DNA from: a virus
Lineage: Duplodnaviria; Heunggongvirae; Uroviricota; Caudoviricetes
Strand: one strand, 5' to 3'
Virus record (IMG/VR): IMGVR_UViG_3300028534_000019
Coordinates: 31,091 to 95,090 of that record
Length of the DNA stretch: 64,000 bases
Shown one piece after another: positions 4,884 through 47,410 of this stretch; within the stretch, counting starts at the first letter, position 1; each line of letters starts with the position of its first letter. Under the pieces are notes generated by a model that saw only the letters and a program-made list of their open reading frames with translations, was not told where the DNA came from and searched no databases. The position numbers and the translations under genes were made by a program.

Positions 4884-5633
4884 ATGTATATACCAAGAAG
4901 AGAATTTGATGATGAACCAAAAATAATTATTTTTAGTGGTGCTGGATTGGATGCCCCATCAGGATTAAAAACTTTTAGGGGTTCTGATGGTTTATGGGAT
5001 AGCCACAAAATACAAGATATTTGTACTGAAAGTACTTGGAAACAAAATTTTGAAGAAGTTCATAATTTTTATAATGGTTTAAGAAATAAATTAGAAAAAG
5101 CACAACCAAATAAAGCACATTTAAAAATAAAAGAATTATATGAAAAGTACCCTGATAGTGTTCTAAATATTACAATGAATATATCAGACTTTTTTGAAAG
5201 GTTAGAAGTTCCAGTTCTTCATATTCACGGAGAACTTAAAAAAATGGAATGTTATGCTTGTGGTACTAAATGGGATATTGGGTATAAGCAGTGGGATATT
5301 GAAAAAGATAGGTGTCCTAAATGCAATAGTAGAAAAGGTGTGAAACCATCTATTGTATTTTTTGGTGGTCAAGCACCTATGTATAGCTACTTGTGGCGTG
5401 CTTTTGAGCATACTATGAATAAAGATACTATTGTGATTGTTATTGGTACTCAGGGTAATGTAGTGAATGTAGAAGAGAATTTAATAGGTACTCCTTGTAA
5501 GAAAATTCTTTGTAATATGGAAGCATCAGCAGATATTAATGTAAAAAAATGTGGTTTTGATAAGGTGTACTATGAAAGTATAGAAACAGCAATAGACAAA
5601 ATTATGGATGATATTGAAGAATGGAAAAAATAA
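4884..5633 (+). CDS. Sir2-family NAD-dependent deacylase / ADP-ribosyltransferase (short sirtuin)
   Basis: GAGLDAPSGLKTFRG (GAGIS..SGIP.FR), GLW, NISDFF, catalytic LHIHGEL, CxxC...CxxC Zn module, VVIGTQGNVV. Confidence 0.8.
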   Translation: MYIPRREFDDEPKIIIFSGAGLDAPSGLKTFRGSDGLWDSHKIQDICTESTWKQNFEEVHNFYNGLRNKLEKAQPNKAHLKIKELYEKYPDSVLNITMNISDFFERLEVPVLHIHGELKKMECYACGTKWDIGYKQWDIEKDRCPKCNSRKGVKPSIVFFGGQAPMYSYLWRAFEHTMNKDTIVIVIGTQGNVVNVEENLIGTPCKKILCNMEASADINVKKCGFDKVYYESIETAIDKIMDDIEEWKK

Positions 5634-6088
5634 AAATATTCACAAGTTACTATTCTAATATTAACAAAATCAGAGAGAATTATCCTGATTTTGTTTTAAT
5701 TTCAATTAGTGGTGGTTTGGAAAATAATATTATAACTTTAATAGATGATTGGGATAAAAGGTTAGCACCTAAAAAAGATTTCTTCTTAGAGTATAAAAAT
5801 TCAAAAGAAGGTTTACCACGAGAGATTAAATATGTAAAAGAATTTAATGATAAAGTTCTATATAAAGATAAAATAAAAATAATTATAAACTCTTGGTTAG
5901 AAAAATATCCAAACAAAACTATTGTAATGCTTTGTTATGAACATCCTAAAGATTTTTGTCATAGACAAATAGTAGCTAAAGAAATTGAAACTGTTTTTAA
6001 TGTTGATGTAAAAGAATTATTTTTTGAAAATTATGAAAGAATAGATTATAAAATGTTTCCTAAAGGCTTAGATGAAGATGAATGGTAA
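5621..6088 (+). CDS. DUF488-family protein, overlapping the Sir2 stop by 13 nt
   Basis: C-terminal MLCYEHPKDFCHRQIVAKEI resembles the DUF488 signature (LxCxExxPxxCHR). Family assignment is from memory of the Pfam consensus. Confidence 0.5.
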   Translation: MEKIKIFTSYYSNINKIRENYPDFVLISISGGLENNIITLIDDWDKRLAPKKDFFLEYKNSKEGLPREIKYVKEFNDKVLYKDKIKIIINSWLEKYPNKTIVMLCYEHPKDFCHRQIVAKEIETVFNVDVKELFFENYERIDYKMFPKGLDEDEW

Positions 6089-18639: not shown

Positions 18640-20490
18640 ATGGCAGTTATTGGTATAGATTTAGGAACGACAAATAGTGCTGTTTCAGTTTATGAAGTAG
18701 GGGAATTTAAAATTATTCCTAATGCTGAGGGTAAAAATACAACACCTAGTATTGTAGCATTTACAGATAAAGGGGATGTATTAGTAGGGGAATCAGCAAA
18801 AAGACAAGCAGTCACAAACCCTGAAAAAACTATTGAAGCAATTAAAAGAATTATGGGTATGCAATTTAATGAACCTAGATGTAAAGAGGCTCAAGAAAAA
18901 GTACAATATAAAATTGTAGATAAAAATGGTTTGGCCGCTGTTGATGTTGATGGTAAGATTTATACACCACAAGAAATTTCAGCTAAAATCCTTACAAAAC
19001 TAAAAGATGATGCAGAAGCATTTATTGGTAAAGAAGTTACAGATGCTGTAATTACAGTTCCAGCATACTTTAATGATGCTCAGAGAAAGGCGACACAAGA
19101 GGCAGGCGTTATTGCAGGGCTTAATGTACTAAGAATTATTAATGAACCTACTTCGGCCGCTCTTGCTTATGGTTTGGACAAAAAAGGTGAGGAAAATATT
19201 CTTGTTTATGATTTTGGTGGTGGTACTTTTGATGTATCTGTATTAGAAATTGGAGATGGTACTTTTGAAGTTCTTTCAACTGATGGTAATGCTTTCTTAG
19301 GTGGTAAAGACTTTGACCAAATTTTAGTTAATTATATTGCTGAATATTTTAAAGAGAAACAGGGTGTTGATTTAAGAAATGATAAAATGGCACTTCAAAG
19401 ATTATATGATGCTTCAGAAAATGCTAAAAAAGAGTTATCAAGTGTTGTAGAAACTGAAATTAACTTACCATTTATTACTATGACAGAAGCCGGCCCGCAG
19501 CATCTTGTTTTAAAAATTTCAAGAGGTAAATTTGAGGGGTTAGTACAAAATCTTGTAGATGAAACTATTGAACATATTACAACAGCATTACAAGACGCTG
19601 GTTTAAGTGTAGATGATATTAGTGAATTGATTATGGTTGGTGGCTCAACAAGAATACCTTTAGTACAAGAGGCAGTTTCAAAGTATTTTAAAGGTAAAAC
19701 TCTTAATAAATCTGTTAATCCTGATGAAGTTGTAGCCGCTGGTGCTTCAATTCAAGGTGGTGTATTAACAGGAGATGTAAAAGATGTTCTTCTTCTTGAT
19801 GTTACACCATTATCACTTGGTATTGAAACTATGGGTGGTATTGCTACTAAAATCATCCCAAAAGGTACAACTATTCCTGTTAAAAAATCAGAAATCTTTA
19901 GTACAGCAGTTGATAATCAACCAGCAGTTAGTATTGTAGTAGTACAAGGTGAAGCAAAATTAGCAGAAGATAATAAATCTTTAGGACAATTTAATCTTGA
20001 GGGTATAACACCAGCTAAAAAAGGTGTACCACAAATTGAAGTTAATTTTGATGTTGATTCTAATGGTGTTTTGAGTGTATCAGCTATTGATAAAGGAACA
20101 GGTAAAGAACAGAAAATAACAATTACAGGTTCGACAGGTTTAAGTGAAGAAGAAATTAGAAAGATGATTGATGATGCTGAAAAACAAAATCAAGAAAAGG
20201 CTGAAAAAATTAAAGCAATTGAAGCAAAAAATGAATTGGATGCTACTCTTTCAAGAATTAAAAACTTTAATGATGAAGAAAAAAATGAAGTGCTATCAGC
20301 TAAAATTTCTGATGTTGAAGAATATGTAAAAGAAGATAGAACAGCAGAAGAAATTAGAAAAATTAGAGATGAACTTGAAGAAGTTTATTTAAAAGCATTT
20401 GAAGAGAAATCAAAAAGAAATGAAGGTGCTGAGGTAAAAGAAAGCACTGAAAATAATGATGATGTTATTGATGCTGAAATTGAAGAATAA
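18640..20490 (+). CDS. dnaK: Hsp70 chaperone DnaK homolog (full NBD + SBD + lid)
   Basis: [26 protein letters not shown] and the substrate-binding domain are all canonical. Confidence 0.95.
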
Positions 20491-20501
20491 AAGAGGAAAA
20501 A

Positions 20502-21305
20502 TTGAAAAAATTATATAAAATTCTTGAAATTGAAGAAACTTCTACAACAGTAGAAATAAAAAAAGCATATAGAAAATTAGCTAAAAAATACCACCCTGAT
20601 GTTTGTAAAGAAGAGGGTGGTGAAGATAAGTTTAAAGAAATTAATAGAGCATATGAAGTTCTAAGCAATCCACAAGAAAAACAAAAGTATGATAGATTTG
20701 GTGATGAAATGTATGAAAAAATGGGGTCAGGTGGTGGAAGACCTAATCCAAATGCTGATGAGTTTGCAGAAGCAATGGCATCATTTTTCAACCAAAAGGG
20801 AAATCCCCGACAAGGTAATCCTTTTGGTATGGGTGGTAATCCTTTTATTCATACAACAATTCAAGCATATATTTCGATAGAAGATTTATTTAAAGGTACT
20901 TCTATACAATTACAAGATGGTACTAAAGTAAAAATACCACCTAGAACAATACCGGGTAGTAGGGTAAGAGTTAAAGGCAAAGGTATGTCAGATGGTAAAA
21001 ATACAGGAGATTTATTTATTATCATAACACCAAAAAATAATGATAAAGAATTTGTTGAGAATGATACTATTATAAAGATTATCAAAATTGATTTAGTTAG
21101 TATGATTTTTGGAAATGAAATAAAATATAATCATTATGGTAAAGATTTAATTGTTACTGTTCCAAAAAATACAAAGCCCGGTGACTTTGTACAAATTCCC
21201 AATCAGGGCTTAGGTACTCAGGGTTCATTAATTTTACATTTAGATTTAGAATTACCAAAAGCAGAAGATTTAGATGAAGAAAAAGTAAAAGAATTATTTA
21301 ATTAA
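20502..21305 (+). CDS. DnaJ-like J-domain co-chaperone (type II, no Zn finger), TTG start
   Basis: J-domain YKILEI...AYRKLAKKYHPDV...YEVLSNPQEKQKYD. Gly-rich linker and a DnaJ C-terminal domain. AAGAGGAAAAA RBS before the TTG. Confidence 0.85.
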   Translation: MKKLYKILEIEETSTTVEIKKAYRKLAKKYHPDVCKEEGGEDKFKEINRAYEVLSNPQEKQKYDRFGDEMYEKMGSGGGRPNPNADEFAEAMASFFNQKGNPRQGNPFGMGGNPFIHTTIQAYISIEDLFKGTSIQLQDGTKVKIPPRTIPGSRVRVKGKGMSDGKNTGDLFIIITPKNNDKEFVENDTIIKIIKIDLVSMIFGNEIKYNHYGKDLIVTVPKNTKPGDFVQIPNQGLGTQGSLILHLDLELPKAEDLDEEKVKELFN

Positions 21306-24380: not shown

Positions 24381-24447
24381 TTTTAATTTTTAATTTTCTT
24401 TTAATATTAAAATGCTATAATTACATAATTAAAAAAGAAGGATATTT

Positions 24448-25548
24448 ATGTTAGTTCAAAATAAAAAAGTTCCAAAAGAAACATTAGAGTTATTGGACTC
24501 TAAAATAGAAGAATTTGAAAAAAATACAAATTCAACTGTTTTATATATTACAATTACAGGTTCTGTTCTTTATGGTACTGATAATGAAAATAGTGATTTA
24601 GATTTTAAAGGTATTTTTATGCCTAATCTAAAAGAAGTGCTTATTGGTAATACACCTAGTGCTTTTGTTTTTAATTCAAATACAAAAGATAAAAACTCTT
24701 CTGATGATATTGATTTAACATTACACCCTGTAAATGACTTCTTTAATCATCTTAGAAAATCTGAAACAGGTGCTGTTGATTTACTTTTTAGTATGTTTAG
24801 AGAAGATACTATTGTTTTTGATGATGGTATTTTCACGAACTTTATGAAGAAAAATTATCAAAAGTTTAGAAATTCTAATATGAAAAGTTTTATCGGTTAT
24901 GCTGTTGGTCAAACTAAAAAATTTGGGATTAAAGGTGCTAGATATGAAGAGTTAGATGTTTTTTATAAAGATTGTGTTAATTATTTTAATCTTGCTCCAA
25001 AAGAAAATAAATTAGGTGAATATTGGGATTTTCTTGAACTAAAAGCCCAAGGTAAAAAATATATTAAGTTTACAAAAGCAGAAGGTGCTAGAAGAAATGA
25101 TGGTAGTAGTAATATCATTGATTATATTTCTGTTCTTGGTAAACTATATCATAAAGATGTAACAGTAGGTTATTTTTTAGAAAGAGTTTCTAAATTTTAT
25201 AATCAATTTGGTAATAGAACTAAAACAGTAGCTAAAACTGAATCAAAAACAGATTGGAAAGCAATGAGCCACGCCCTTAGAGTAGCTATGGAAGTTAAAG
25301 AGTTACTTCAATTTGGTTTTATTAAATTTCCATTGACTTATGCTGATGAGATTAAAGAAGTTAAATTTGGTAACAGAGAAGAACAAGAAACATTAGATAA
25401 AATTAGAGATGTATTGGGTGAAGTTGATACAATATTAGAAAATATTGATAAAGATAACTTTCCTTGTGAAATGAGTGAAGAATTACTTAAAAAATTAAAA
25501 TGGGAAGTAATTCTTCTATATAAAGAGTTTTTAGATTTAGGTTTTTAA
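24448..25548 (+). CDS. nucleotidyltransferase-fold protein (Pol-beta / CD-NTase-like GS...D.D motif)
   Basis: ITGSVLYGTDNENSDLDFKGIF is the [GS]x9-13 Dh[DE]h signature. A third acidic DIDLT lies downstream. 366 aa. Confidence 0.55.
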   Translation: MLVQNKKVPKETLELLDSKIEEFEKNTNSTVLYITITGSVLYGTDNENSDLDFKGIFMPNLKEVLIGNTPSAFVFNSNTKDKNSSDDIDLTLHPVNDFFNHLRKSETGAVDLLFSMFREDTIVFDDGIFTNFMKKNYQKFRNSNMKSFIGYAVGQTKKFGIKGARYEELDVFYKDCVNYFNLAPKENKLGEYWDFLELKAQGKKYIKFTKAEGARRNDGSSNIIDYISVLGKLYHKDVTVGYFLERVSKFYNQFGNRTKTVAKTESKTDWKAMSHALRVAMEVKELLQFGFIKFPLTYADEIKEVKFGNREEQETLDKIRDVLGEVDTILENIDKDNFPCEMSEELLKKLKWEVILLYKEFLDLGF

Positions 25549-25549
25549 A

Positions 25550-26602
25550 ATGGATTTTGATTTTGATGAAATTGTTGCTACAAGAACTTATGTTGATTGT
25601 TATTGTAATGATAATATAAGTTCAGATGATATTAAAGGTATATTAAATCCTAATTTTATTAATAAAACATTAAATGAAATAGATAATTTTTTATATGGTG
25701 GTTTTAATTATTTTAGTAAAAGAGTTCCATTCACTTTAGCTGGTGGTTCTCTTCTTAGTTATTGTTCTTATTATATAGCTACAAAAAATGATTATGGTAA
25801 TCCAAAAAGTTATTTAGATTGGTTGGAATATTCAGGTAATTCTGATATTGATTTATTTTTTGAATGTGAGGAAGATTATATAAAAATGCTTGAAGCAGTA
25901 CAAAAAAATGGTTTTAGTAATTTATCACCTAAACCAAATGCTAAAAGTTTTTATAAAAAAAGAGGAAAAAATAAAAATACAATTTCAATAGATTTAGTAC
26001 ATAAAGATTATTCAGCACCACAAAAACTTATAGATAGATTTGATTTGAATAAGAGTAAAATTGCTATAAGTTCTTATGGCAATCTTTATATAGGTAATGA
26101 TTTTGATAATTATCTTTGTTTAAATCCATTAAATATAAATTATAATACTATATCAAGATTTAAAAAATATTCTATAACAAAACATATACAACCTTCATAT
26201 AAAACTTTACAAGAACTTGTACATATTTTCATTGATAAACAAGATGAAGTATATGAAAGTTTTTATAATGATGAAAAAAGAGATATACCTATGTATGGTG
26301 GGCTTGAAAATCTGATTACAATTATTGTAGATTGTAAAAAGTTATATAACATAGATTTAAAACTTAGTCGTGATGAGGTATTTAACTTATATTTAATATT
26401 GGAGAAACATTTTTCTGAAAAAGATAGATTAATTTCTTTTTTTACAAAAATAATTAATGAAGATAGTATTGATTATATACCTAAAATATATGAATTATTA
26501 TTACAACGACAAGATAGATTTTATGGAAAACAATTTGAAGATAATATGGATGAATCTATTAGAGATAAAGTTTTAGAAACATACCCTGAAATAATGTTTT
26601 AA
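25550..26602 (+). CDS. second nucleotidyltransferase-fold protein, ending ...VLETYPEIMF
   Basis: LAGGSLLSYC...SGNSDIDLFFECEE NTase signature. 350 aa. Start 2 nt after the previous stop. Confidence 0.5.
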   Translation: MDFDFDEIVATRTYVDCYCNDNISSDDIKGILNPNFINKTLNEIDNFLYGGFNYFSKRVPFTLAGGSLLSYCSYYIATKNDYGNPKSYLDWLEYSGNSDIDLFFECEEDYIKMLEAVQKNGFSNLSPKPNAKSFYKKRGKNKNTISIDLVHKDYSAPQKLIDRFDLNKSKIAISSYGNLYIGNDFDNYLCLNPLNINYNTISRFKKYSITKHIQPSYKTLQELVHIFIDKQDEVYESFYNDEKRDIPMYGGLENLITIIVDCKKLYNIDLKLSRDEVFNLYLILEKHFSEKDRLISFFTKIINEDSIDYIPKIYELLLQRQDRFYGKQFEDNMDESIRDKVLETYPEIMF

Positions 26603-26664
26603 CACATAAAAATTAAGTAATATTACTATATAATATGACTTATTAAATATAATAAAGGAAAAAA

Positions 26665-27576
26665 ATGGAAGAACAAATAGCGATTGATTTAGGCTATTCA
26701 ACATCAAAAGTTGCTTATGCTGATAAAATAGCAAAATTCCCAACTGCTGTTTCTTTTGCTACTGATGTAGGTACATCATATGGTGAAGGGAATATTTATG
26801 ACTTTGAGGGAGATAAGTATTATGTGGGTAGTGAAGCCGCTGATGCTGAGGCTTTTACAACTATGGATTTTAAATTTTTATATAAATTTGCTCCTCTTCT
26901 TATCTATCATATTTTAAGTAAATTTGATAAAGCAGAACTTGAAAAACCTATTGTTGTAAAAACAGGATTGGCAATTGTTGATTGGCATAAAAAAGATGAT
27001 TTTATTGAAAGAATTTCAAAAATTGAAGTGAATGGGCAAACTGTTGAAACAACACCCATTCTTATTCCTCAAGGTGCTGGATGTGCTGTTGATTGGGTTT
27101 CATCAGATAATGATGGAGAATGGCCGGACAATCTTACAGTAGTTGATATTGGTTATAATACTATTAACCTTATATCATTTTTAGAGGGTAAACCAATTAG
27201 AAAAAATATGAAAAGTTACCCAGGACACGGTGTTTCTAGTATAATTAAACCTTTTACTAGTTATCTTGAAAATACTTTTGGTACAACATTTTCAGAACAA
27301 GAAGCAATTAAATTTTTTGTTAAAGGTACTTTTAAATATAATGGTGAAGACCAACCTAAAGTATCAGAAAAAATTACAGAATTAAAATCACAATTTGTTA
27401 AAAAAATGTTTCAATCTGTTTTAGTTTCTGATAAAAAACTTCTTGCTATGTCAGATGTAGTGCTTATTGCTGGTGGTGGTGCTTATTTACTTCAAGATAT
27501 TCCATTCCCGCCAAATGTTGAGTTTGTTGATTCTCCTTATGAGTTCAGTAATACTCGTGGTTATTTAATTTCATAA
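26665..27576 (+). CDS. actin-like ATPase of the ParM/StbA/Alp family
   Basis: Phosphate-1 IAIDLGYSTSKVA, phosphate-2 VVDIGYNTINL, adenosine motif LIAGGGA. 303 aa. Confidence 0.75.
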   Translation: MEEQIAIDLGYSTSKVAYADKIAKFPTAVSFATDVGTSYGEGNIYDFEGDKYYVGSEAADAEAFTTMDFKFLYKFAPLLIYHILSKFDKAELEKPIVVKTGLAIVDWHKKDDFIERISKIEVNGQTVETTPILIPQGAGCAVDWVSSDNDGEWPDNLTVVDIGYNTINLISFLEGKPIRKNMKSYPGHGVSSIIKPFTSYLENTFGTTFSEQEAIKFFVKGTFKYNGEDQPKVSEKITELKSQFVKKMFQSVLVSDKKLLAMSDVVLIAGGGAYLLQDIPFPPNVEFVDSPYEFSNTRGYLIS

Positions 27577-27589
27577 AAAAGGATAAAAA

Positions 27590-27931
27590 TTGTTAAAATT
27601 ATGGTATAGAATTAAGTGTTTTTTTGGACACTGTTTAGAACTTGATATTATTAAAAGTAAGGAAGAAATTAGAAAAAGAGATTATGATGTTTCTAAAGCA
27701 CCTTATAAAGTTGAAGGTGTGGCTGAGGAATTTCCACAAGAATTTAAAGATATTCTTGAAAAGAAAGAAGATAAAGAAAATGAGTCTGAAAAAACAGAAA
27801 AACTTAAAAGGGCTTGGTTCAATAATGGAGTTGAACAAAGATTAGTTCAAATTCAACCTATTGATGAAAGTTTAAGTTTACCTGATGGATGGGTAAAAGG
27901 TAAATTAAAAAAAGGTATGAATAATGAGTAA
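27590..27931 (+). CDS. hypothetical K/E-rich protein
   Basis: 113-aa ORF. Confidence 0.4.
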   Translation: MLKLWYRIKCFFGHCLELDIIKSKEEIRKRDYDVSKAPYKVEGVAEEFPQEFKDILEKKEDKENESEKTEKLKRAWFNNGVEQRLVQIQPIDESLSLPDGWVKGKLKKGMNNE

Positions 27932-28428: not shown

Positions 28429-28442
28429 TAAAAGGAACAATT

Positions 28443-28889: not shown

Positions 28890-28940
28890 TTAACATATTT
28901 TATGTTATAATTCTAACATAAAAATAAAAAAAGGATATTA

Positions 28941-33464: not shown

Positions 33465-34577
33465 ATGAAAATTACAGAGATTAAACCTATTTTACAGTTT
33501 TCTAAAGATGCTGATGATGCTGTAATCATTGAGGGTAAACACGGTATTGGTAAATCAGAAATAGTTAAACAATATTGTTCGGAAAATGGTTATTTTTATA
33601 CTGTTTTATTTTTAAGTCATCAAGAAGTTGGTGATTTGATTGGTATGCCTTTTGAAAAAAATGGTATTCAATATTGGTCTAAACCATCTTGGTTAGTAAG
33701 AATGGAAGAAGCATCAGCAAGAGGGGAACATAATGTTTTACTCTTAGATGAGTTAAACCGAGCCCAAACTGATGTATTACAAAGTGCTTTACAACTTGTT
33801 TTAGAAAGACAAATTCACGAGCATTTCTTACCTACTACTGATGGTGTAAGAAGTCAAGTAATTGCTTGTATTAACCCTGATGATGATTTATATCAAGTAA
33901 TTACACTTGACCCAGCACTAAAAGATAGATTTTTACATTTAAAAACAAGTGAAGATTTACAAGGATGGGTTAAATGGGGTGGTGAAAAAGGAGTACCTGA
34001 TGTTGTTATTCATTACTTGCTTGAAAATGAAAATGATTTTCATAGTACAAATGAAGATGGTGAGGGTGCTACACCAAGAAGTTGGTATAAATTAAGTCAA
34101 TTCTTGAAAATATTTGAAGATAAAGAAGTTGAAGAATTTCAACTTTGGGAGATTATTAAAGGTAAAGTAGGTTCAAGTATCGGTAGCAAATTCCTTAACT
34201 TTTATAATACTCATAGTACATTTATTGATGTTACAAAAATTAAAAAGTTTTTAAATAAATATAAAAGAGATATTTCTGATTTACCTGAAATTGGTGCTGA
34301 ATTAGCTAGTTATATTAAAGGTCTTGAACAAGTAACTAAAGTAGAACAAGTTAATAAACTATATCACGACAGTATTGAAAAAATTAAAGATACTAAAGTT
34401 ACTATGGATGATGAAGATATTTTCACTATTTTTGCTATGCTTCACGCTTTTGAAATAGAAGTAACAACATCAGTTATGAAGCAATGGAAAAATGAAAGTG
34501 TGAGTGATTTTATGGATTTTGTTAAAAAAGATAATAAAGAACTCATTACATTAATAACAAGAAGATTAAAAACATAA
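33465..34577 (+). CDS. MoxR/CobS-like AAA+ ATPase (AAA_5)
   Basis: Walker A GKHGIGKSE, Walker B/sensor LLLDELNRA. 370 aa. Confidence 0.75.
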   Translation: MKITEIKPILQFSKDADDAVIIEGKHGIGKSEIVKQYCSENGYFYTVLFLSHQEVGDLIGMPFEKNGIQYWSKPSWLVRMEEASARGEHNVLLLDELNRAQTDVLQSALQLVLERQIHEHFLPTTDGVRSQVIACINPDDDLYQVITLDPALKDRFLHLKTSEDLQGWVKWGGEKGVPDVVIHYLLENENDFHSTNEDGEGATPRSWYKLSQFLKIFEDKEVEEFQLWEIIKGKVGSSIGSKFLNFYNTHSTFIDVTKIKKFLNKYKRDISDLPEIGAELASYIKGLEQVTKVEQVNKLYHDSIEKIKDTKVTMDDEDIFTIFAMLHAFEIEVTTSVMKQWKNESVSDFMDFVKKDNKELITLITRRLKT

Positions 34578-34592
34578 AAGAGGTATTAAAAA

Positions 34593-34802: not shown

Positions 34803-34814
34803 GAAAGGTTTTAT

Positions 34815-36901: not shown

Positions 36902-37321
36902 ATGATTTTAATCATAGATACATTATTTACAGAAAGTGTTGCTTTAACAGTTATTCAAGAAAAAGAGAATGAAAAAAGAGTTAAAGAAGTTAATTATAAA
37001 GATGTTAAAAAAGAAATTGAAAATAACACTTTTAATATTTGTAATTTAAAAGATGATGTTATAAGATTTATTAAAATAAATGATGTTCCTGCTGATGTTT
37101 TTGAAAGTTTTAAAGAGTATTTAAGAGGTTGTTTATTTGAATTAACAGTTAAAAACCTTAAAAAAGGTTTTGAAGATACTTTGAAAATACAAGAAGTTAC
37201 TAAATCAATTAATGATTTAGATATTAAAATTTCTATTGCTGATAATGTTTTTGAATTAGGACAATTATCAATAGCATTAGATTATTATAAAAATGAATTA
37301 GATAAAATAAAAGGGTTATAA
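36902..37321 (+). CDS. hypothetical protein
   Basis: 139-aa ORF behind the second copy of the 66-nt promoter cassette. Confidence 0.45.
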   Translation: MILIIDTLFTESVALTVIQEKENEKRVKEVNYKDVKKEIENNTFNICNLKDDVIRFIKINDVPADVFESFKEYLRGCLFELTVKNLKKGFEDTLKIQEVTKSINDLDIKISIADNVFELGQLSIALDYYKNELDKIKGL

Positions 37322-38004
37322 TGGATAATATATTATTAAGAGATTTAGTTAATGAGATTGATGAAAATACTAAGGTTATTTCAGATACTCATTTTTCTCA
37401 TAAAAATATCCTAAATTTTGAGCCTTGTAGATTAACACAAATGAGAATTGATGGTTATGATGCAGATGAACACGACAAATGGCTCATAGATAAATGGAAT
37501 GAGAATGTAGGTAAAGATGAACTTGTTATACATTTAGGTGATTTTGCTTTTAAAAGAGTAGCTGAATGTTTAGAAGAATTAAATGGTAGAATTATTTTAA
37601 TTCTTGGAAACCACGATGGAAATTCAAAAAATACAAAATATAATAAGGCTACTGTTGTAGATGGTTCTTATATGTTTCTAAAGTCTTATACAGATGATAC
37701 AATATTATGTAAAATTGTTGATGAAGATGAGAAAAATAGTTCTTTGATAATTGAAATTGGTGGTAAGACTGTTATGTTTTGTCATTATGCTTTATTTAAT
37801 AAAAATGGTGAATGGGATTATAAAAATCCAAAGATAGCACCAAGAATTAAATATCTTGAGAGTATTTATTCTATGTTAGATTGTGATGTAAATGTACACG
37901 GTCATCTACATAGTTCTATTAGTACTTTTGATAAAAGTATAAACTGTTCTCTTGAACATATTGAGTTTAAACCAACAAAAATAAAAGATTTAAAAGGGTG
38001 GTAA
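37321..38004 (+). CDS. calcineurin-like metallophosphoesterase
   Basis: MPP motifs ISDTHFSH, HLGDF, ILGNHDG, GHLH. Confidence 0.75.
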   Translation: MDNILLRDLVNEIDENTKVISDTHFSHKNILNFEPCRLTQMRIDGYDADEHDKWLIDKWNENVGKDELVIHLGDFAFKRVAECLEELNGRIILILGNHDGNSKNTKYNKATVVDGSYMFLKSYTDDTILCKIVDEDEKNSSLIIEIGGKTVMFCHYALFNKNGEWDYKNPKIAPRIKYLESIYSMLDCDVNVHGHLHSSISTFDKSINCSLEHIEFKPTKIKDLKGW

Positions 38005-38172
38005 ATGGTAGTAAATGATTTAAGAGTTATGCTAAGTACAGCATTAGAAATTATTGGTGATAGAAATGCTTTACCATCAGATAAAGATAAAATTATTCTA
38101 TTGATGAAGAGTGAAGCAACAACACATAATCTTGAAGAAATAGAAAAGATTTGTGAAAAATATAAAGGATAG
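38005..38172 (+). CDS. possible small ORF (~55 aa) not in the ORF track
   Basis: ATG at 38005 overlapping the previous stop. Open to a TAG at about 38170. Fills the gap before the CCA-enzyme gene. Confidence 0.3.
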   Translation: MVVNDLRVMLSTALEIIGDRNALPSDKDKIILLMKSEATTHNLEEIEKICEKYKG

Positions 38173-38174
38173 TA

Positions 38175-39122
38175 ATGTTTGTTGTTAGAAAATTGCTTGA
38201 AGAAGCAAATGATAATTATTTTAAAAGACTTAATGATAATGAAATATCTAAAAATGATATAGAAATTTATGAAACTATTTTCCCTATTAGAAAATTAGAT
38301 GCTAGAAAATTAGATGATTTTGTTTCTAAAACTAACATTGATAATCTATTAATTAAAATTTCAAAACTAGATAATTCTTATATTAAAACTTTACTTAATG
38401 ATGTAATACTGATATTATCTAATGAAAAACCAAACTCAAGTCTAGCAGAAAATCTAAATCTTGTAAAAATGAGAATTGAAATAGATTTAGATGATGATGT
38501 TAAAAATTTTATATATGCTGAGGATATTATAGAAGTTTTAAAAACATTACCTAAAAGAACATTTATTGTAGGTGGTTTTGTTAGAGATTCAATAGCTAAT
38601 AGAAGTGCTAATGATATGGATTTTTGTACTGAAAATAGCTATGAAGATGTAAAAAAAGTTTTTGAAAAAAATAAAAACTTCTCTATTAAAGAAACAGGTA
38701 AACATTTTTCTGTTTTGATTGTTACAGATAAAAATAATCTTGAATCTTTTGAAATTGCTCAATTAAGAAAAGACAAAGATAATGGTGGTGCTGAAATAGG
38801 AACTATTATAGATGATGCTGAAAGAAGAGATTTTATGAATAGTGCTATTTACTTTGATATTAATTCTAAAGTATTAATTGACCCTCACGGTCAATCAATA
38901 GATGATAGTGTCAGAAATGTAATTAGATTTATTGGCAAACCTGAGGATAGAATAAAAGAAGACCCTCTAAGGGTTCTAAGATTTTATAGATTTATGGGTA
39001 GAGGTTGGGTAGCTGATTCAAAATCATTAAAAGCAGTGAGAACTAATTTTAGTTTAATGATGAATGAAACATCTCATAATAGAGTTATGAGTGAAATTGA
39101 AAAAATGGTAATGGGAGCATAA
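38175..39122 (+). CDS. cca: tRNA nucleotidyltransferase (CCA-adding enzyme, class II head domain)
   Basis: FIVGGFVRDSI (GGxVRD), NDMDFC (DxD), DAERRDFMNSAIYFD (RRD motif), EDPLRVLRFYRF (EDxxR). Confidence 0.8.
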   Translation: MFVVRKLLEEANDNYFKRLNDNEISKNDIEIYETIFPIRKLDARKLDDFVSKTNIDNLLIKISKLDNSYIKTLLNDVILILSNEKPNSSLAENLNLVKMRIEIDLDDDVKNFIYAEDIIEVLKTLPKRTFIVGGFVRDSIANRSANDMDFCTENSYEDVKKVFEKNKNFSIKETGKHFSVLIVTDKNNLESFEIAQLRKDKDNGGAEIGTIIDDAERRDFMNSAIYFDINSKVLIDPHGQSIDDSVRNVIRFIGKPEDRIKEDPLRVLRFYRFMGRGWVADSKSLKAVRTNFSLMMNETSHNRVMSEIEKMVMGA

Positions 39123-39353
39123 ATGAATTGTACAGTTTTATATAAAGACAAAGATTATGATATAACAGTGAAAGGTTTTAAAAACATTACAGAAGCAGAG
39201 GATTTTATTCAAGATAAAACTGAAGATGATGAATGTTATGAACCGAGAATAATGGTTGATTATCCAATCATTCAACAACAAGAAGAAACAATAAAACTAT
39301 TAAGAAGTTTACTTGAATCTTTTGCTAATGATTTTAAAGTAAAAAGATTATAA
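39123..39353 (+). CDS. hypothetical small protein
   Basis: 76-aa ORF. Confidence 0.4.
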   Translation: MNCTVLYKDKDYDITVKGFKNITEAEDFIQDKTEDDECYEPRIMVDYPIIQQQEETIKLLRSLLESFANDFKVKRL

Positions 39354-39451
39354 ATATCTTTGATATTTTATAAAAAATTAAGTAAAGTTAGAGTATAATT
39401 ACACATACAAAAAGGATATGTTGTTTTAATTATAAAAACTTTACTTACTAT

Positions 39452-39772
39452 GGGGATGATATGGTTTCGACTGGAAGTCATAGCACTAATGATACCTTTT
39501 AAAATTAAACGCAAACAACACAGATTACACTGGTAACACAGTGCTTTCAGCATAGTCTAAGGACTTGACTGAGGGGTTTTTAAGTTTTACCTTGCAACAG
39601 AAAAACTTATCCTTTTCGTTTTATATGGTTGTATGTCCTTAACATACATTAAAGTTTGTAATCTTTTCAAAATTACACATAAAAGTTAATAGTTCTTGGT
39701 TCTTTTAAAAACTAGAACATATCATTAGTGTGGATTTTTAGGACTCGGGTTCAATTCCCGACATCTCCACCA
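39452..39772 (+). ncRNA. ssrA: tmRNA (ssrA), about 321 nt
   Basis: 5' GGGGAUG pairs with 3' CAUCUCC-ACCA, giving an acceptor stem with a G3:U wobble (Ala identity). 3' tRNA-like GGACUCGGGUUCAAUUCCCGA T-arm. Encoded CCA. Internal tag ORF GCA AAC AAC ACA GAT TAC ACT GGT AAC ACA GTG CTT TCA GCA TAG gives ANNTDYTGNTVLSA-stop. Coordinates are +/-1 to 2. Confidence 0.85.
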
Positions 39773-39843: not shown

Positions 39844-41706
39844 ATGAGTCAAGATATTGTTTTAGGTATTGATTTAGGTACAACAATGAGTGTAATATCA
39901 TATTACGACCCCCACGAAAAAGCAGTCAAACTTATTAAAGATAAAGAACAAAAAGTTTTATTTCCATCAGTTGTTGCTTTGGTTGATGGTAAATGGGAAG
40001 TTGGTGAAAGGGCTTTAGAACAATATGAAGTAACTCCTGAATTAACAATAAGAAATATTAAAAGACTTATGGGAACACCATTTTATTCTGATGGATGTAA
40101 ACAAGCAAAAAATATAATCAGTTCAAAAGTTGTTAATATGGATGGTATGGCAGGTGTTGAGTTGATGGGTAAACAATATTCACCTGAAGAAATTTCCTCA
40201 ATCATTCTTAGTTTTTTAAAAGATACAGCAGAAAAACATTTTGAAAGATTGAAATTAGATTATAATATTAGTGGTGTTGTTATAACAGTTCCAGCATACT
40301 TCAATCATAACCAAAGAACAGCCACAAGGCGTGCTGGAGAGGTAGCTGGACTAAATGTATTAAGGATAGTTAATGAGCCGACAGCGGCTTCTCTTGCTTA
40401 TGGTTTACAAAATAAAGAAGATGGTAAAATAGTAGCAGTTGATTTAGGTGGTGGTACATTTGATGTATCAGTAATTGATATTTCTGATAGTACATATAAA
40501 GTTCTAAGTACAAATGGTAACTCTTATTTTGGTGGAGAAGACCTAAATAATAAAATTTTTAAAAATTTAGTAGATTTTATAAAGGCTAATATTGGAATAG
40601 ATATTACACTAAGTGATAGGTCACAAGCAATATTAAATGAAGAAATAGAGAGAGTAAAACAAGAACTTTCTTTTAATAAATCTTCTTACCTAAATGCTAA
40701 TGATATTTTTGAAAAAGACCCTTATAATTTTTCAGCTAAGATTACAAGAGAAGAATTAGAAGAAATTCTTGATTTTGGAGAAGTTAAAAAACACATAATT
40801 AAGGCTATTGAAGATGCTGATGTAAAATATGAAGAAATACAAGATGTTGTTTTAGTTGGTGGTTCAACAAGAATACCTATGTTGAAAAAAATAGTTTCTA
40901 AATTATTTGATGGTAGAGAACTTTATGATAAATTAAACCCTGATGAGGTAGTTTCAATAGGTGCTTCTATTCAGGGTGCTATTATTTCAGGTTATATTGA
41001 TGATATTTTGTTAATTGATGTTGCTTCTTTATCTTTGGGTATAAAATTAGATGACGAAACATTTTTACCAATTATTAAAAAAGGAACAGTATTACCAGCA
41101 GAATTTAATGATAATGTTACAACTTCTGAGAATGACCAAAAATTCTTAGTTTTTAATATAGCCCAAGGTGAAGCAGAAAAATTTAGTGATAATATTTTCT
41201 TAGGTAACTTTATTTTTGAGGGTTTTGATACCGGACCGGCAGGTTATCCAAACATAACTGTAACAATAAAACAAAATTTAGATGGTATTATAGAAGTATT
41301 AGTTAAAGATGAAAATTCTAAAGCAAAAGAAACTTATCTCATTGAGGGTGAATATAATATTTCACAAAGTAGAATACAAGAATTAACAGCTAAAAATGAA
41401 GAAAGTAATGAAGAAAACAAAGAAGAAAATGAAAGAAAAAGATGTTTATCGAGAATAAAATATAAATTGTTTGAAATTGAAAGATATGCTGAAAAATTTG
41501 ATTCTGAGAGAATGAGAGAATTATATAAAAATGGTTTGGATGCCATAAAAGAAGATAAACTAAAAGCAAGTGATTTATCAGTTATAGAAAATTATCTATC
41601 AAGTAGATATTTTAGTGTTATGGCTTCACACCAAAAAGAAATAGAAAACAAATTAGAAGAAAATGCTAGAAATTATGCTAAAAAACTTAGAAAAAAGGAA
41701 AAATAA
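39844..41706 (+). CDS. second, divergent Hsp70-family chaperone
   Basis: [25 protein letters not shown] motifs. 620 aa. SBD-like C-terminal half. Confidence 0.9.
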   Translation: MSQDIVLGIDLGTTMSVISYYDPHEKAVKLIKDKEQKVLFPSVVALVDGKWEVGERALEQYEVTPELTIRNIKRLMGTPFYSDGCKQAKNIISSKVVNMDGMAGVELMGKQYSPEEISSIILSFLKDTAEKHFERLKLDYNISGVVITVPAYFNHNQRTATRRAGEVAGLNVLRIVNEPTAASLAYGLQNKEDGKIVAVDLGGGTFDVSVIDISDSTYKVLSTNGNSYFGGEDLNNKIFKNLVDFIKANIGIDITLSDRSQAILNEEIERVKQELSFNKSSYLNANDIFEKDPYNFSAKITREELEEILDFGEVKKHIIKAIEDADVKYEEIQDVVLVGGSTRIPMLKKIVSKLFDGRELYDKLNPDEVVSIGASIQGAIISGYIDDILLIDVASLSLGIKLDDETFLPIIKKGTVLPAEFNDNVTTSENDQKFLVFNIAQGEAEKFSDNIFLGNFIFEGFDTGPAGYPNITVTIKQNLDGIIEVLVKDENSKAKETYLIEGEYNISQSRIQELTAKNEESNEENKEENERKRCLSRIKYKLFEIERYAEKFDSERMRELYKNGLDAIKEDKLKASDLSVIENYLSSRYFSVMASHQKEIENKLEENARNYAKKLRKKEK

Positions 41707-44579: not shown

Positions 44580-44794
44580 TGACAAATATTCAAAAAATTA
44601 AATTTGATGCTAAATTTAGTGTTTCATATATGAATGGAAAATATGTTATTTCAGGTTTTAATCATACTTATTCTTTACATATAAAAGATAGATGTGATGA
44701 ATTAAATTATTTCATTGAAGATTATGAATTATGGAATTTAAGAGAAAAAGAATGGGAAGACCTTGTAAATACAATTAAGAAAGAGGGATTTTAA
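44570..44794 (+). CDS. hypothetical small protein
   Basis: 74-aa ORF, last gene of the + block before the inverted tail block. Confidence 0.4.
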   Translation: MDIMTNIQKIKFDAKFSVSYMNGKYVISGFNHTYSLHIKDRCDELNYFIEDYELWNLREKEWEDLVNTIKKEGF

Positions 44795-45411
44795 ATCTCT
44801 CCTGATTGTATTTTACTTAATAAACTAGCTGTATCGCCAATAAAATTATTCTGAATATTAACAGTTTTTTCATCATTTTGTTTTTCTAATTCATAAGCAT
44901 TTAAAAATTTCTTAACTTTAAGTTGTGTTTCAGCAACAGTAGAATAACTATCCATCAATAACTTCATACTTGTAACATTACCTTTTTTAAGTTCAGCATA
45001 TGCCATTAAAACACTACCTGAAACCTCTTCAGAGTGTGATACAGCTAAATCCTTACCTAACTTAGATAAAATCTCTTTCGTCGTCTGTATATCTTCTCTT
45101 AGTGCTTGTTTAACTATATCAAAATCAGTTAATAATTCATCACTCTTTACAATACTTGCTAATGTATCACTATCATTTAAAACAGGAACTTGTTTTATTT
45201 TCTCATCTATTTCTTGTTTTCTTTTTTTAAGATTATCTTCAAGACCATCAGCCTCTAATTCAAAAGCGTCTAACAAACCTAAAAATTTATTTGCTTCTTC
45301 TAATTCTTTAGAAACCTTTTCATTTACATCTTCTATAATTTCTATTTCATCAGTATTATCAGTTGATTTATTTTCTGTAAAATCTATATTATTTTCTTCT
45401 ATATTAGACAT
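44791..45411 (-). CDS. acidic helical protein downstream of gp15 (position of T4 gp16, small terminase; weak)
   Basis: 206 aa, highly acidic N-terminus. Sits where gene 16 follows 15 in T4. No motif confirmation. Confidence 0.4.
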   Translation of the reverse strand: MSNIEENNIDFTENKSTDNTDEIEIIEDVNEKVSKELEEANKFLGLLDAFELEADGLEDNLKKRKQEIDEKIKQVPVLNDSDTLASIVKSDELLTDFDIVKQALREDIQTTKEILSKLGKDLAVSHSEEVSGSVLMAYAELKKGNVTSMKLLMDSYSTVAETQLKVKKFLNAYELEKQNDEKTVNIQNNFIGDTASLLSKIQSGEI

Positions 45412-45434
45412 TTAAAACCTTTTTTATTATTTTT

Positions 45435-46223
45435 TTATTCATTTGGATGTGTTATAGTTGTTTTAGCATTATCTATGTTATAATCATCTTCATCTACTTG
45501 TTTTGAATTAATAAAACCTGATAATTCCTCTATCTCATATACTTCACTTTTGTAATTTATTTCAGTTGTAACAGCAGTAGTATAAATTTCAACCTCTTTA
45601 ATAATGTGTGCTTCTTTTATAGGTAAGTATAAATTACCCTTAACAGTTATCGGTACTGAAATTTCAACAAGATATATTTCATCATCATTTGGTTCAGGTA
45701 ATTCAATATCAAAATCACCTAATTGTACTTGTATAGATGTAGGTTCTTCTTGTATATCTAATTCATTAATTTTTAATGTGTAATCAGGTCTAAATAATGG
45801 TGCTATCTGTTCAATGATTATAGTAGCATCAGAAAATGTTTTTGTAGCAATATGTAAAGTAAATTCAAAATCATAAGCAACAGAATTTTTATGAAATAAT
45901 CTTGTAATATCTTCTTTACTTAAATTATCTTTTGATGTTCTGTTTACAATAGAATTTTTATTTGTATTTCTATTTAATGCTTTATTTAAGCCATTAAATT
46001 CTAAAGCCATTCTTGGTAATACATTAACATTACCATTATTAATATTTTCTATATCATAATCACTCAACATAAAAGCAATATTTCTATTCCCAAATTTTAT
46101 AGGTACTTTTGTATCTGAAATTCTTTTACCTGTATTATCAAATCTTGGTACACTAATATCATTAAATAAATCTATCAAAGCAATAGTATAATTTTTAGTT
46201 GAGTTGTGGTAAAAGTAGTTCAT
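45435..46223 (-). CDS. 15: tail sheath stabiliser / tail completion protein, T4 gp15 family
   Basis: N-terminus MNYFYHNSTKNYTIALIDLFNDISV vs T4 gp15 MFGYFYNSSFRRYATLMGDLFSNIQI. Length 262 vs 272. Confidence 0.7.
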   Translation of the reverse strand: MNYFYHNSTKNYTIALIDLFNDISVPRFDNTGKRISDTKVPIKFGNRNIAFMLSDYDIENINNGNVNVLPRMALEFNGLNKALNRNTNKNSIVNRTSKDNLSKEDITRLFHKNSVAYDFEFTLHIATKTFSDATIIIEQIAPLFRPDYTLKINELDIQEEPTSIQVQLGDFDIELPEPNDDEIYLVEISVPITVKGNLYLPIKEAHIIKEVEIYTTAVTTEINYKSEVYEIEELSGFINSKQVDEDDYNIDNAKTTITHPNE

Positions 46224-46260
46224 AATTTTCCTTGTTAAAATATGTTATTTTATATTAATA

Positions 46261-46280
46261 TTCTTAGGAAAAATCCTAAG
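46261..46280. terminator. hairpin TCTTAGGA-AAAA-TCCTAAGA between the tail-tube gene and gp15, followed by T6 on the + strand
   Basis: Perfect 8-bp stem and 4-nt loop seen in the sequence. Lies immediately 3' of the 46290..46814 gene on the - strand. Likely an attenuating or 3'-protective structure, possibly bidirectional. Confidence 0.4.
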
Positions 46281-46289
46281 AATAATTTT

Positions 46290-46814
46290 TTACATTTTAA
46301 TCCAGTGAGTAAATGCAAAATCAACAGTAAACTCAGTTACCATATCATTACTTTCATCAGCCATATCAATAGAACTGATATTAGTCGGCCAAAGGTTTCT
46401 AAATTGATAAGTAAGTTTTACACTATTATCTCTTGTATCTAATTGTTGAATTTGTGCTGTTTCAGTCATATAAGAAGCATTAGTAGTAACTTTTCTTTTA
46501 TGATTTTCCATATCATCAATAAATACCAACCAATCATCAAATAATTTTCTTAATTCGTGGTCTTGTGTGTTGTAAAATGTTAAAGACCAAGTATTTTCAT
46601 AAGCCGCATCACCTGCAATTATAAGTTTTCTACCTTGTGTCCAAACCTCAATTTGCCCAATAGATTTAGCTGGTATCGGCCCGCCCTTACAAAGAGTATC
46701 TATCTTTTTATCATCTTTTGGTCCGACAGGAGCCGCCAACATAACTCTATATTTATTTGCTCTTGCACCTAAACCAAGAGTACTTTTTAATTCTTGTACT
46801 TTACTAGAAGCCAT
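46290..46814 (-). CDS. 19: tail tube protein, T4 gp19 family (paralog A)
   Basis: C-terminus RNLWPTNISSIDMADESNDMVTEFTVDFAFTHW vs T4 gp19 GLWPTNVGELQLDWDSNNEIQTFEVTLALDYWE. Confidence 0.8.
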   Translation of the reverse strand: MASSKVQELKSTLGLGARANKYRVMLAAPVGPKDDKKIDTLCKGGPIPAKSIGQIEVWTQGRKLIIAGDAAYENTWSLTFYNTQDHELRKLFDDWLVFIDDMENHKRKVTTNASYMTETAQIQQLDTRDNSVKLTYQFRNLWPTNISSIDMADESNDMVTEFTVDFAFTHWIKM

Positions 46815-46864
46815 AACTTCCTCCTTTTTTTAATCTTAATACAAAATTTGTACTAATTCTTATT

Positions 46865-46872
46865 TATTTATA
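46865..46872 (-). promoter_or_regulatory. late promoter TATAAATA (minus strand) about 50 nt upstream of gp19 paralog A, with a GGAGG RBS
   Basis: TATTTATA on the + strand, which reads TATAAATA on the - strand. Downstream leader AAAAAAAGGAGGAAGTT-ATG. Confidence 0.5.
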
Positions 46873-46886
46873 TATGGTATTTTTTA

Positions 46887-47399
46887 TCAATCCCAATGTG
46901 AATAATTAAATGTAACAGTAAACTCTAACAACCCTTCTGTATCATCACTATAAGTAGATTCAGATAATGCTTTAGGATATAAATCATATATTGTATATGT
47001 AGCCATTGGTGAGTTATCTTTTGTGCTTAATTGTTGTAAAACAGCATCAGTCATATAACTTGGTGCTGATGAAGCACTTCTATTATTTGTATTAAAATCA
47101 TCTATAAAATTCATCCAAGCTAAAAATGCTTTTCTTAATGTATGCTGTTCTGTATCAACAAATGTTAAATCCCAAGTTCCTGTAAAAAGTGTTTCACCAG
47201 CGATAGTTAATTTTTTACCTTGTACATATACTTCTACATCAGCAAATTCTTTACCAGGAATATTAGCACCTTTAACTAATGTATTAACTATATTATTACC
47301 CGGCCCGCCACCTTTTGAATTAAGAATTAGTTTATATCTATTTGACCTAGCACCTATACCAAGTGTATTTTTTAGATTTTGAATTGTACTATTTGCCAT
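46887..47399 (-). CDS. 19: tail tube protein, gp19 family (paralog B)
   Basis: Clear paralog of the previous gene (MANSTIQNLKNTLGIGARSNRYKL vs MASSKVQELKSTLGLGARANKYRV). Same C-terminal WPxxxS...EFTV..F..HW pattern. Confidence 0.8.
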   Translation of the reverse strand: MANSTIQNLKNTLGIGARSNRYKLILNSKGGGPGNNIVNTLVKGANIPGKEFADVEVYVQGKKLTIAGETLFTGTWDLTFVDTEQHTLRKAFLAWMNFIDDFNTNNRSASSAPSYMTDAVLQQLSTKDNSPMATYTIYDLYPKALSESTYSDDTEGLLEFTVTFNYSHWD

Positions 47400-47410
47400 T
47401 ATATATCCTT

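Follow-up and report, generated by a model that had tools for sequence, protein, structure and literature searches.

An RlaP-type nucleotidyltransferase, a divergent Gad2-like nucleotidyltransferase and an Alp-type actin predicted side by side in an uncultured T4-like phage

Three consecutive open reading frames (ORFs) on the plus strand of the IMG/VR virus record IMGVR_UViG_3300028534_000019, which belongs to a tailed phage, are the subject of this report. The stretch analysed, called the window below, is 64 kb long (positions 31,091 to 95,090 of the record) and is part of a contig of ~101 kb (100,859 bp), whose remaining ~37 kb lie outside the analysis. ORF1 (24448..25548, 366 amino acids (aa)) is predicted to encode a Pol-beta nucleotidyltransferase (NTase) of the RlaP / T4 NrdC.11 type, in which an NTase domain at the N-terminus is followed by a large C-terminal part made of helices. 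ORF2 (25550..26602, 350 aa) starts 1 nt past the ORF1 stop codon and appears to encode a divergent NTase of the Gad2 family (PF26128), and ORF3 (26665..27576, 303 aa) is assigned to the actin-like ATPases of the Alp/ParM type. The same three products are present in the public gene calls of an overlapping assembly contig. A first-pass annotation, prepared from the sequence alone, had reported two NTase ORFs of 366 and 350 aa here, and their positions and lengths match the ORF list exactly. It is probable that these are three separate genes, each representing a described family and each having a proposed role of its own. All three families are already described, and ORF2 is, as far as can be judged from sequence, a very divergent and differently built relative of Gad2. 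The analysis compared gene order and fold neighbours and assessed to which families the proteins belong and whether their catalytic residues are conserved; the substrates and biological roles named below are proposals drawn from these comparisons.

ORF1 is classified as an RlaP/NrdC.11-type nucleotidyltransferase by sequence similarity. The Pfam family PF10127 (RlaP) is matched with 52 bits (gathering cut-off 23; E 1e-13), and phrog_388, labelled 'nucleotidyltransferase', is matched over residues 20-350 (E 5e-57). In a large protein database 206 homologues were found with identities up to 55%, and all 120 listed homologues, except one truncated protein, carry the PF10127 label. When isolated phages were searched by tblastn, 1511 records were matched, 949 of them covering at least 80% of ORF1; these are mostly T4-like phages of enterobacteria, Aeromonas, Vibrio and Acinetobacter, in which the gene is annotated as nrdC.11 or nucleotidyltransferase. 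The nrdC.11 products of Aeromonas phages 31 and 44RR2.8t are 31% identical to ORF1 (E 2e-39, 86% coverage). The sequence search of the Protein Data Bank (PDB) with ORF1 gave no match.

The catalytic motif, hG[GS] followed by the metal-binding carboxylates DxD, can be read in ORF1 as G38-S39 ... D50-L-D52 (24559..24603, plus strand). The candidate third catalytic carboxylate is held in D87-I-D89 (24706..24714, plus strand), located on strand 88-94 of the structural model. Residues G38, S39, D50, D52, D87 and D89 are invariant across an alignment of 46 ORF1 homologues. A GS-x(9-13)-DxD signature had been attributed to both proteins in the first-pass annotation; ORF1 has it, as G38-S39-x10-D50-x-D52, and ORF2 does not, the sole G[GS]...DxD there being G65-G66-S67 ... 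D99-I-D101 with a spacing of 31 residues. The strict G-S/DxD pattern is contained by chance in 2.9% of ORF1 shuffles and the relaxed G[GS]...DxD pattern in 30% of ORF2 shuffles. As a bare motif the signature is weak, and it gains meaning because of homology and the family-wide invariance of the residues. The more general claim, that both proteins are Pol-beta-superfamily NTases with intact catalytic carboxylates, is supported; these carboxylates are invariant in both the ORF1 alignment and the 49 sequences of the ORF2 family. The AlphaFold (AF2) model of ORF1 has a predicted local distance difference test (pLDDT) score of 92.4. The solved structures nearest to it, all with modest scores, are KNTase/ANT(4')-type NTases, the NTase-like protein 3c18 and Hailong HalB. 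Foldseek did not list the RlaP crystal structure of PMC12776372 among its matches to the ORF1 model, so that the comparison yields no direct confirmation from a solved RlaP structure.

The activity of this family has been described for two Pseudomonas enzymes, PfRlaP and PaRlaP, which add 1-2 nucleoside monophosphates (NMP), with little specificity for the nucleoside triphosphate (NTP), to the 3'-OH of RNA but not DNA, with broken-tRNA mimics as the preferred substrate; T4 NrdC.11 was placed in the RlaP family in the same 2025 preprint (PMC12776372). According to a comparative study, phage RlaP is predicted to restore nucleotides lost from cleaved RNAs ahead of ligation (PMC7824862), and RNA ligase genes are the usual companions of RlaP genes (PMC12776372; PMC7824862). 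By analogy, the substrate of ORF1 would most likely be broken or trimmed RNA, above all the tRNA fragments that host ribonuclease defences leave behind. ORF1 would extend its 3'-OH by 1-2 nucleotides without much preference among NTPs, after which the RNA would be resealed or restored.

ORF2 was compared with a broad set of databases. The Pfam library without PF26128 gave no match even at E 10, PF01743 included, and NCBIfam and PADLOC yielded nothing meaningful. A phmmer search of the PDB returned noise only (Cry toxins, OXA beta-lactamases), and its own sequence was the sole return of a word-indexed search of a 5.8-billion-entry database. Three weak Vibrio phage matches were obtained by tblastn against isolated phages. 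Only when 1.84 billion representatives were searched exhaustively with phmmer did a set of relatives emerge, 48 in number and all distant, the best of them with E 6.4e-11 and 28% identity, and the part which they have in common with ORF2 comprises residues ~95-245. A profile of the ORF2 family returned 5 proteins from the 5.8-billion-entry database, and a profile of its relatives gave no significant match among PDB sequences. Against Pfam, the 49 family members show scattered sub-threshold NTase families only (DUF6932, ANT(2''), PolyA_pol, Polbeta).

The NTase core of ORF2 (residues ~58-228; 25721..26233, plus strand) bears the motifs AGGS (64-67), DIDLFF (99-104), ISIDLVH, RFDLNKS (163-169) and RFKKY (203-207). 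In the family alignment the motifs follow each other in the order FIAGGS, DIDIFF, IQLI, FDLNxS, RxxKY and the C-terminal YPExFI, and D99, D101, D165, R203 and Y207 are invariant in all 49 sequences. The long spacing before the DxD is accounted for by residues 68-98 (25751..25843, plus strand), which are inserted after the GGS helix and ahead of the DxD strand. This insertion is private, being seen in no other sequence of the family alignment, and the model puts an extra helix at 88-95 within it (pLDDT 75-84). The core is followed by an all-helical C-terminal region (residues ~229-350; 26234..26599, plus strand), whose helices span 249-349 in the model and which ends with YPEIMF; the terminal YPExFI motif of the subfamily is kept across the family alignment and also in Vibrio phage pv27.

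The connection with Gad2 is indicated by the precomputed Pfam label of ORF2, 'PF26128 Gad2 (weak)', and by the same label, not marked as weak, on the relatives P0169, P0170, P0124, P0126 and P0123. An independent test made use of the validated Gad2 of Brevibacillus laterosporus and six homologues from the supplement of the Gad2 discovery paper. In hhalign the ORF2-family profile matched the validated protein with a probability of 98.3% (E 1.4e-14) and the 7-sequence Gad2 alignment with 99.4% (E 1.3e-21, 154 columns). Gad2 residues G31, G32, D45, D47, D107, R152 and Y156 are in register with G65, G66, D99, D101, D165, R203 and Y207 of ORF2, and these ORF2 residues are invariant or nearly so in its family. 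The alignment is limited to the N-terminal NTase domain of Gad2 (residues 22-175), and ORF2 residues 229-350, with their own helical region, have no counterpart in Gad2 by hhalign. On this evidence ORF2 is regarded as a highly divergent member of the Gad2 family which is, by its residues, catalytically intact. The first-pass annotation recognised the NTase fold correctly but overlooked the membership of this anti-defence family.

Gad2 is a predicted nucleotidyltransferase which neutralises Gabija, as evidenced genetically for SPbetaL7 Gad2 and the B. laterosporus homologue only. SPbetaL7 Gad2 is toxic on expression, a Pseudomonas phage gene of the Gad2 family becomes cytotoxic when strongly induced, and the mechanism of Gad2 was still listed as unknown in a February 2026 review (PMC12904381). 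ORF2 may transfer NMP from NTP onto the 3'-OH end of a nucleic acid or onto another host target, and such an activity could serve host takeover or anti-defence.

The best structural neighbours of the ORF2 model are class II CCA- and A-adding enzymes, which are aligned with the head and part of the neck (~190-205 residues) at global template modelling (TM) scores of only 0.3-0.4. The class II structures concerned are A-adding 3wfo, CC-adding 4wby, CCA-adding 3h37, 9kma and 1miv, and poly(A) polymerase 3aql. A class II enzyme with the PolyA_pol head domain is also encoded in the window itself as its third NTase (38175..39122, plus strand; PF01743, E 7.5e-18), with the motifs GGFVRD...NDMD, RRDF and EDPLRVLRFYRF in its translation, and the ORF2-family profile matches this protein with a probability of 93.7% (E 1.9e-7). 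PF01743 itself is matched by 1 of the 49 ORF2 relatives (E 1e-3). Class II CCA-adding enzymes are defined by GGxVRD and by the nucleotide-selecting/template motif EDxxR. Both are absent from ORF2, where AGGSLLS and NTISRFKKY are read at those places, and because of this and of the missing PF01743 match ORF2 was filed as class II-like and not as a member of the class. The catalytic core of ORF2 is best seen, from profile comparison and the model, as a derived form of the class II (CCA-adding/poly(A) polymerase) head domain. CCA-like tailing or modification of RNA 3' ends was the closest of the options listed in the first-pass annotation, ORF1 being an RlaP-type protein and the fold of ORF2 lying near class II, and it was only partly right.

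The class II enzyme of the window has an N-terminal extension of ~125 residues without family assignment. Its gene lies downstream of a metallophosphoesterase gene (37321..38004) and upstream of a tmRNA gene (39452..39772; tag ANNTDYTGNTVLSA), the latter being the sole match of an Rfam scan of the whole window at gathering thresholds. The consecutive genes at 37321..39772 look like a cluster for RNA-end healing and translation rescue.

It had also been suggested that one or both NTases are cGAS/DncV-like (CD-NTase) cyclases or other second-messenger synthases, which make or mimic signalling nucleotides. Both proteins show the generic Pol-beta G[GS]/DxD signature and a size like that of CD-NTases, and Hailong HalB, which synthesises oligodeoxyadenylate, is among the weak structural neighbours of ORF1. 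The ORF2-family profile also reaches the PDB entries 6p8u and 6p82 with E 0.8-0.9, in a motif region of 45 residues only; these entries are the CD-NTases CdnC and CdnD. PADLOC, on the other hand, gave sub-threshold PDC-S09 only for ORF1 (E 0.015-0.029) and nothing for ORF2, and there is no CD-NTase among the listed structural neighbours of either model. The proposal is not supported and is considered extremely improbable.

ORF3 is an Alp/ParM-type actin by its sequence, in agreement with the first-pass annotation, which placed such a protein behind the NTases. The Pfam domains ALP_N (47.5 bits, cut-off 26.3; E 2.8e-12) and MreB-like_C (34.9 bits, cut-off 27.8; E 2.7e-08) are both above cut-off, and phrog_691, 'partition protein', is matched with E 3.5e-25. 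The nucleotide-binding motifs are intact: phosphate-1 D8-L-G-Y-S-T-S-K, connect P135-Q-G, phosphate-2 D161-I-G-Y-N-T and adenosine A269-G-G-G-A. The best match among PDB sequences is Alp12 (4apw, E 0.025). Of isolated phages, the best homologues are gp104 of Yersinia phage YerA41 (50% identity) and the actin-like protein of Cobetia phage Carin-5 (48%), and the genes of both sit in DNA-replication modules together with topoisomerase, exonuclease, dUTPase and helicases, with no nucleotidyltransferase nearby. The Alp of a syntenic locus, the closest relative of the window among the related loci compared (L006; other loci are numbered likewise), is 76% identical to ORF3. The precedent studied by experiment is AlpC of prophage CGP3, which supports phage DNA transport and replication via the adaptor AlpA (PMC4446434, PMC5539076). 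As ORF3 is phage-encoded and its closest homologues lie in replication modules, it fits the role of AlpC, and it would most likely form ATP-dependent filaments which position or move replicating phage DNA in the same way.

No recognisable ParR/AlpA-like adaptor gene was found near ORF3, and the repeat search at positions 24000-29000 gave weak A+T-rich repeats only, with no convincing centromere-like iterons among them. Right after ORF3 lies an ORF of 113 aa (27590..27931), which is 33% identical to the ORF at the same position in L006 (10213-10575). Its similarity to a PHROG labelled HNH endonuclease is weak and concerns the C-terminal part of that PHROG, and it belongs to no recognisable DNA-binding family; by position alone, it is a candidate for the Alp adaptor. 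The need of ParM/Alp systems for an adaptor, together with the failure to recognise one here, brings up the idea of a joint function of ORF2 and ORF3, in which the NTase-fold protein might, for instance, be a filament adaptor or DNA-end modifier. In two IMG/VR contigs, L012 (5960-8069) and L013 (3039-5176), a Gad2-like gene is indeed followed by an Alp gene within ~300 nt, with identities of just 24-30% between these proteins and their counterparts in the window. As L012 and L013 are alike, they count as one lineage that has this order besides the window, while Alp genes as close as those of L006, YerA41 and Carin-5 have no adjacent Gad2-like gene, and in pv27 the two genes are ~70 kb apart. 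Moreover, ORF2 keeps all catalytic residues, which would be needless in a pure adaptor, and a joint function of this kind is considered very unlikely. The Alp reading frame of L013 is split into ORFs of 201 and 118 aa.

The base composition of the window is ~26% G+C and nearly all coding is on the plus strand. The T4-type proteins encoded there are gp32, RNase H, primase, large terminase, a neck protein, the gp15 tail-sheath stabiliser, and baseplate and baseplate-hub proteins. The accessory genes, as far as roughly 50 window ORFs scanned for families can tell, comprise two Hsp70s, DnaJ, NUDIX, Sir2 with DUF488, SPFH, AAA_5 with DUF2201/VWA, YqeY, ThyX, and the phosphoesterase, class II NTase and tmRNA already mentioned. 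From this gene content the source is taken to be an uncultured T4-like myovirus with many translation- and RNA-related accessory genes, and the three ORFs belong to its non-structural region. Such a gene set fits a role of ORF1 in RNA-end repair and establishes no role for ORF2. At the DNA level, the locus gave just short matches of 65-71% with isolated phages, all of them inside the Alp gene.

ORF1 and ORF2 are not similar to each other, as the first-pass annotation had noticed: BLASTP gave no in-register match and the profile-profile probability is 0.4%. With no similarity at the level of sequence or profile, tandem duplication was ruled out as the origin of the pair. The gene order of related loci was also compared, the related-locus search with a 9-sequence subset of the ORF2 family giving 3 IMG/VR loci. 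L006 keeps the order NUDIX...RlaP...Alp...YqeY-ThyX, with RlaP 51% identical to ORF1, and in the slot of ORF2 it has two ORFs unrelated to ORF2. One of these, of 175 aa, was considered as a degraded ORF2 homologue and rejected, since comparison shows no relation. The other RlaP neighbourhoods, L007/L008 and L009/L010, have neither a Gad2-like gene nor Alp. Counted together, a Gad2-like gene stands next to RlaP in none of 3 other distinct RlaP neighbourhoods, and an RlaP gene is near the Gad2-like gene in none of the roughly 10 Gad2-like neighbourhoods examined. The juxtaposition of RlaP and ORF2 is thus particular to this phage among the neighbourhoods examined. The implied tandem pair or three-gene unit of the first-pass annotation did not survive this comparison, the two NTase families being unrelated as well.

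Elsewhere, RlaP genes have different neighbours. In one neighbourhood (L007:1296-15047) RlaP is 54% identical to ORF1 and lies in a region rich in anti-defence and RNA-repair genes: a kinase-like gene (AAA_33/KTI12-like) follows directly downstream, and NAMPT, a class II PolyA_pol-type NTase, an Acb2/Tad1-hairpin protein, a metallophosphoesterase and Acb1 are also encoded there. In another, from a hydrothermal-vent metagenome (L009:545-5486), five radical-SAM genes in a row and then an intein-containing helicase gene come after an RlaP gene whose product is 55% identical to ORF1.

Several observations weigh against the view that these are three separate genes of described families. ORF2 and Gad2 share only ~21% identity in the aligned core, and ORF2 has no equivalent of the C-terminal half (~220 residues) seen in the validated Gad2 proteins of 394-400 aa, for which reasons an anti-Gabija role of ORF2 would be an extrapolation; the original list of Gad2 homologues includes short proteins of 214-278 aa, also without this half. 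No RNA ligase, RtcB or Pnkp/polynucleotide kinase was found among the scanned ORFs of the window. The 1-nt junction of ORF1 and ORF2 suggests co-expression and speaks against full independence, and ORF2-like genes precede Alp in the one other lineage described above. With regard to the ligase, the T4 NrdC.11 gene is likewise not known to lie next to the T4 ligase genes.

The junction is also the starting point of an alternative in which ORF1 and ORF2 are a co-expressed pair for repair or tailing of RNA 3' ends: RlaP would fill in nucleotides, the completion or capping of tRNA or tmRNA 3' ends would fall to the class II-like enzyme, and both would work jointly with the CCA-like enzyme, phosphoesterase and tmRNA of the phage against tRNA-cleaving defences of the host. 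In positions 24000-28000 no terminator was predicted, and promoter-like sites were rarer there than in shuffles, the scan for both being uninformative. The nearest folds of ORF2 are tRNA 3'-end enzymes, the genes at 37321-39772 would supply the further components, YqeY and NUDIX genes are near the locus, and RlaP as well as CCA-adding enzymes have been counted among the RNA-repair NTases of phages (PMC7824862). Set against this are the adjacency, which is unique to this phage and not shared by its closest relative, the lack of the EDxxR motif and of a PF01743 match in ORF2, and the failure to find an RNA ligase in the window. Such a pair is judged unlikely. An equally unlikely extension would make ORF2 a distinct branch of the Gad2 superfamily, with a class II-like head, its own YPExFI helical domain and a usual position after an AAA_5 gene, representing a new kind of counter-defence and recruited beside RlaP as a unit for RNA-end repair or tailing. 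As such a branch, ORF2 could nucleotidylate nucleic-acid 3' ends or a host sensor. Three separate genes remain the preferred reading.

Genes of the ORF2 subfamily are more frequently associated with another gene, which encodes an AAA_5 (MoxR/CobS-like) ATPase, the link with Alp being seen in one other lineage only. In 6 distinct loci an AAA_5 gene is immediately upstream of the ORF2-like gene, often with a gap of 0-60 nt: L002 (521-2679), L003 (1-2219), L011 of Vibrio phage pv27 (4740-7047), L014 (2548-4898), L015 (3824-5821) and L017/L018 (L017:4700-6834). The AAA_5 proteins of these loci are ~40% identical (those of L002, L003, L011 and L014 40-41%) to the AAA_5 ATPase of the window (33465..34577, plus strand; Pfam AAA_5, E 1.6e-10; phrog_1297, E 3.9e-52). 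At one locus a DNA ligase gene is found upstream of the ORF2-like gene. It can be proposed from this that ORF2 belongs functionally with the AAA_5 ATPase and its VWA/DUF2201 partner, its present position by RlaP and Alp being a result of rearrangement; L017 has DUF2201 ~3 kb upstream, and in the window the AAA_5 and DUF2201 genes form a pair at 33465-36473. In the window, however, the AAA_5 gene lies 7 kb from ORF2, no AAA_5 neighbour is present in L012, L013 and L020/L021, and no mechanism ties a MoxR-type ATPase to an NTase. Since all phages involved are T4-like, both the AAA_5 and the Alp links are possibly inherited synteny. A functional tie with the ATPase is held to be doubtful, and separate roles of ORF1, ORF2 and ORF3 are still preferred. 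An ORF of 122 aa after the AAA_5 gene of the window was tried as an ORF2 homologue and is not one. The neighbouring ORF at 35220..36473 matches both Pfam DUF2201_N (putative metallopeptidase) with a VWA-like domain and phrog_1314 (E 2.4e-68), whose label 'HNH endonuclease' is probably a PHROGs mislabel.

A few further features of the window deserve mention. The Sir2-family gene (4884..5633) overlaps the start of the DUF488-N3a gene (5621..6088), and the two may be a phage-borne pair related to NAD/ADP-ribose. The genes at 18640..21305 and 39844..41706 encode two Hsp70/DnaK homologues of full length (616 and 620 aa) together with a homologue of DnaJ, where the second Hsp70 gene starts 72 nt past the tmRNA gene. 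The sole minus-strand gene block (44791..47935) includes the T4 gp15-like tail-sheath stabiliser, and GC skew and AT skew change sign over the same interval.

The assignments of ORF1 and ORF3 are routine annotations, useful just for labelling this uncultured T4-like phage. ORF2, for its part, ties the core of Gad2 by fold and profile to the class II CCA-adding/poly(A) polymerase head domain and points to a divergent, shorter Gad2 subfamily spread among T4-like phages, usually beside an AAA_5 ATPase gene. This narrows the hypotheses on Gad2-type enzymes toward template-independent 3'-end nucleotidyl transfer and offers, for work on Gad2, a smaller homologue of different architecture. A tempting but unsupported reading, in which cGAS-like signalling molecules are made by the phage, is removed. 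Taken as a whole, what the first-pass annotation observed was largely accurate apart from the motif spacing in ORF2, and of its interpretations CCA-like tailing was borne out in part and cGAS/DncV-like signalling was not.

Compared with known systems, ORF1 resembles the RlaP family in its score above the gathering cut-off, in near full-length similarity to NrdC.11 and in the retained G-S, DxD and D-x-D residues. It differs in sequence, with ~31% identity to its nearest counterparts in isolated phages and 51-55% to those from metagenomes, and also from the bacterial RlaP operons, which gave the family its name, in that a nearby RNA ligase, RtcB or Pnkp gene was not found. ORF3 departs from Alp12, ParM and AlpC in its marginal similarity to solved Alps, and neither an adaptor nor centromere-like repeats could be recognised for it; it shares with them both Alp Pfam domains and all nucleotide-binding motifs, and is phage-encoded. 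From class II tRNA nucleotidyltransferases ORF2 is distinguished by the absence of the tRNA-holding body and tail domains. From Gad2 it is distinguished by the private 31-residue insertion before the DxD strand, by the helical end with YPExFI and by the typical link of its subfamily to an AAA_5 ATPase gene instead of the SPbeta gad1/gad2 locus. Nevertheless, ORF2 shares with Gad2 the NTase core with the ordered motifs AGG[ST], DxDxxF, an IQLIH-like strand, FD[FL][TN] and RxxKY, and its family is phage-borne, as is Gad2 of phage SPbetaL7 and of the Brevibacillus laterosporus prophage.

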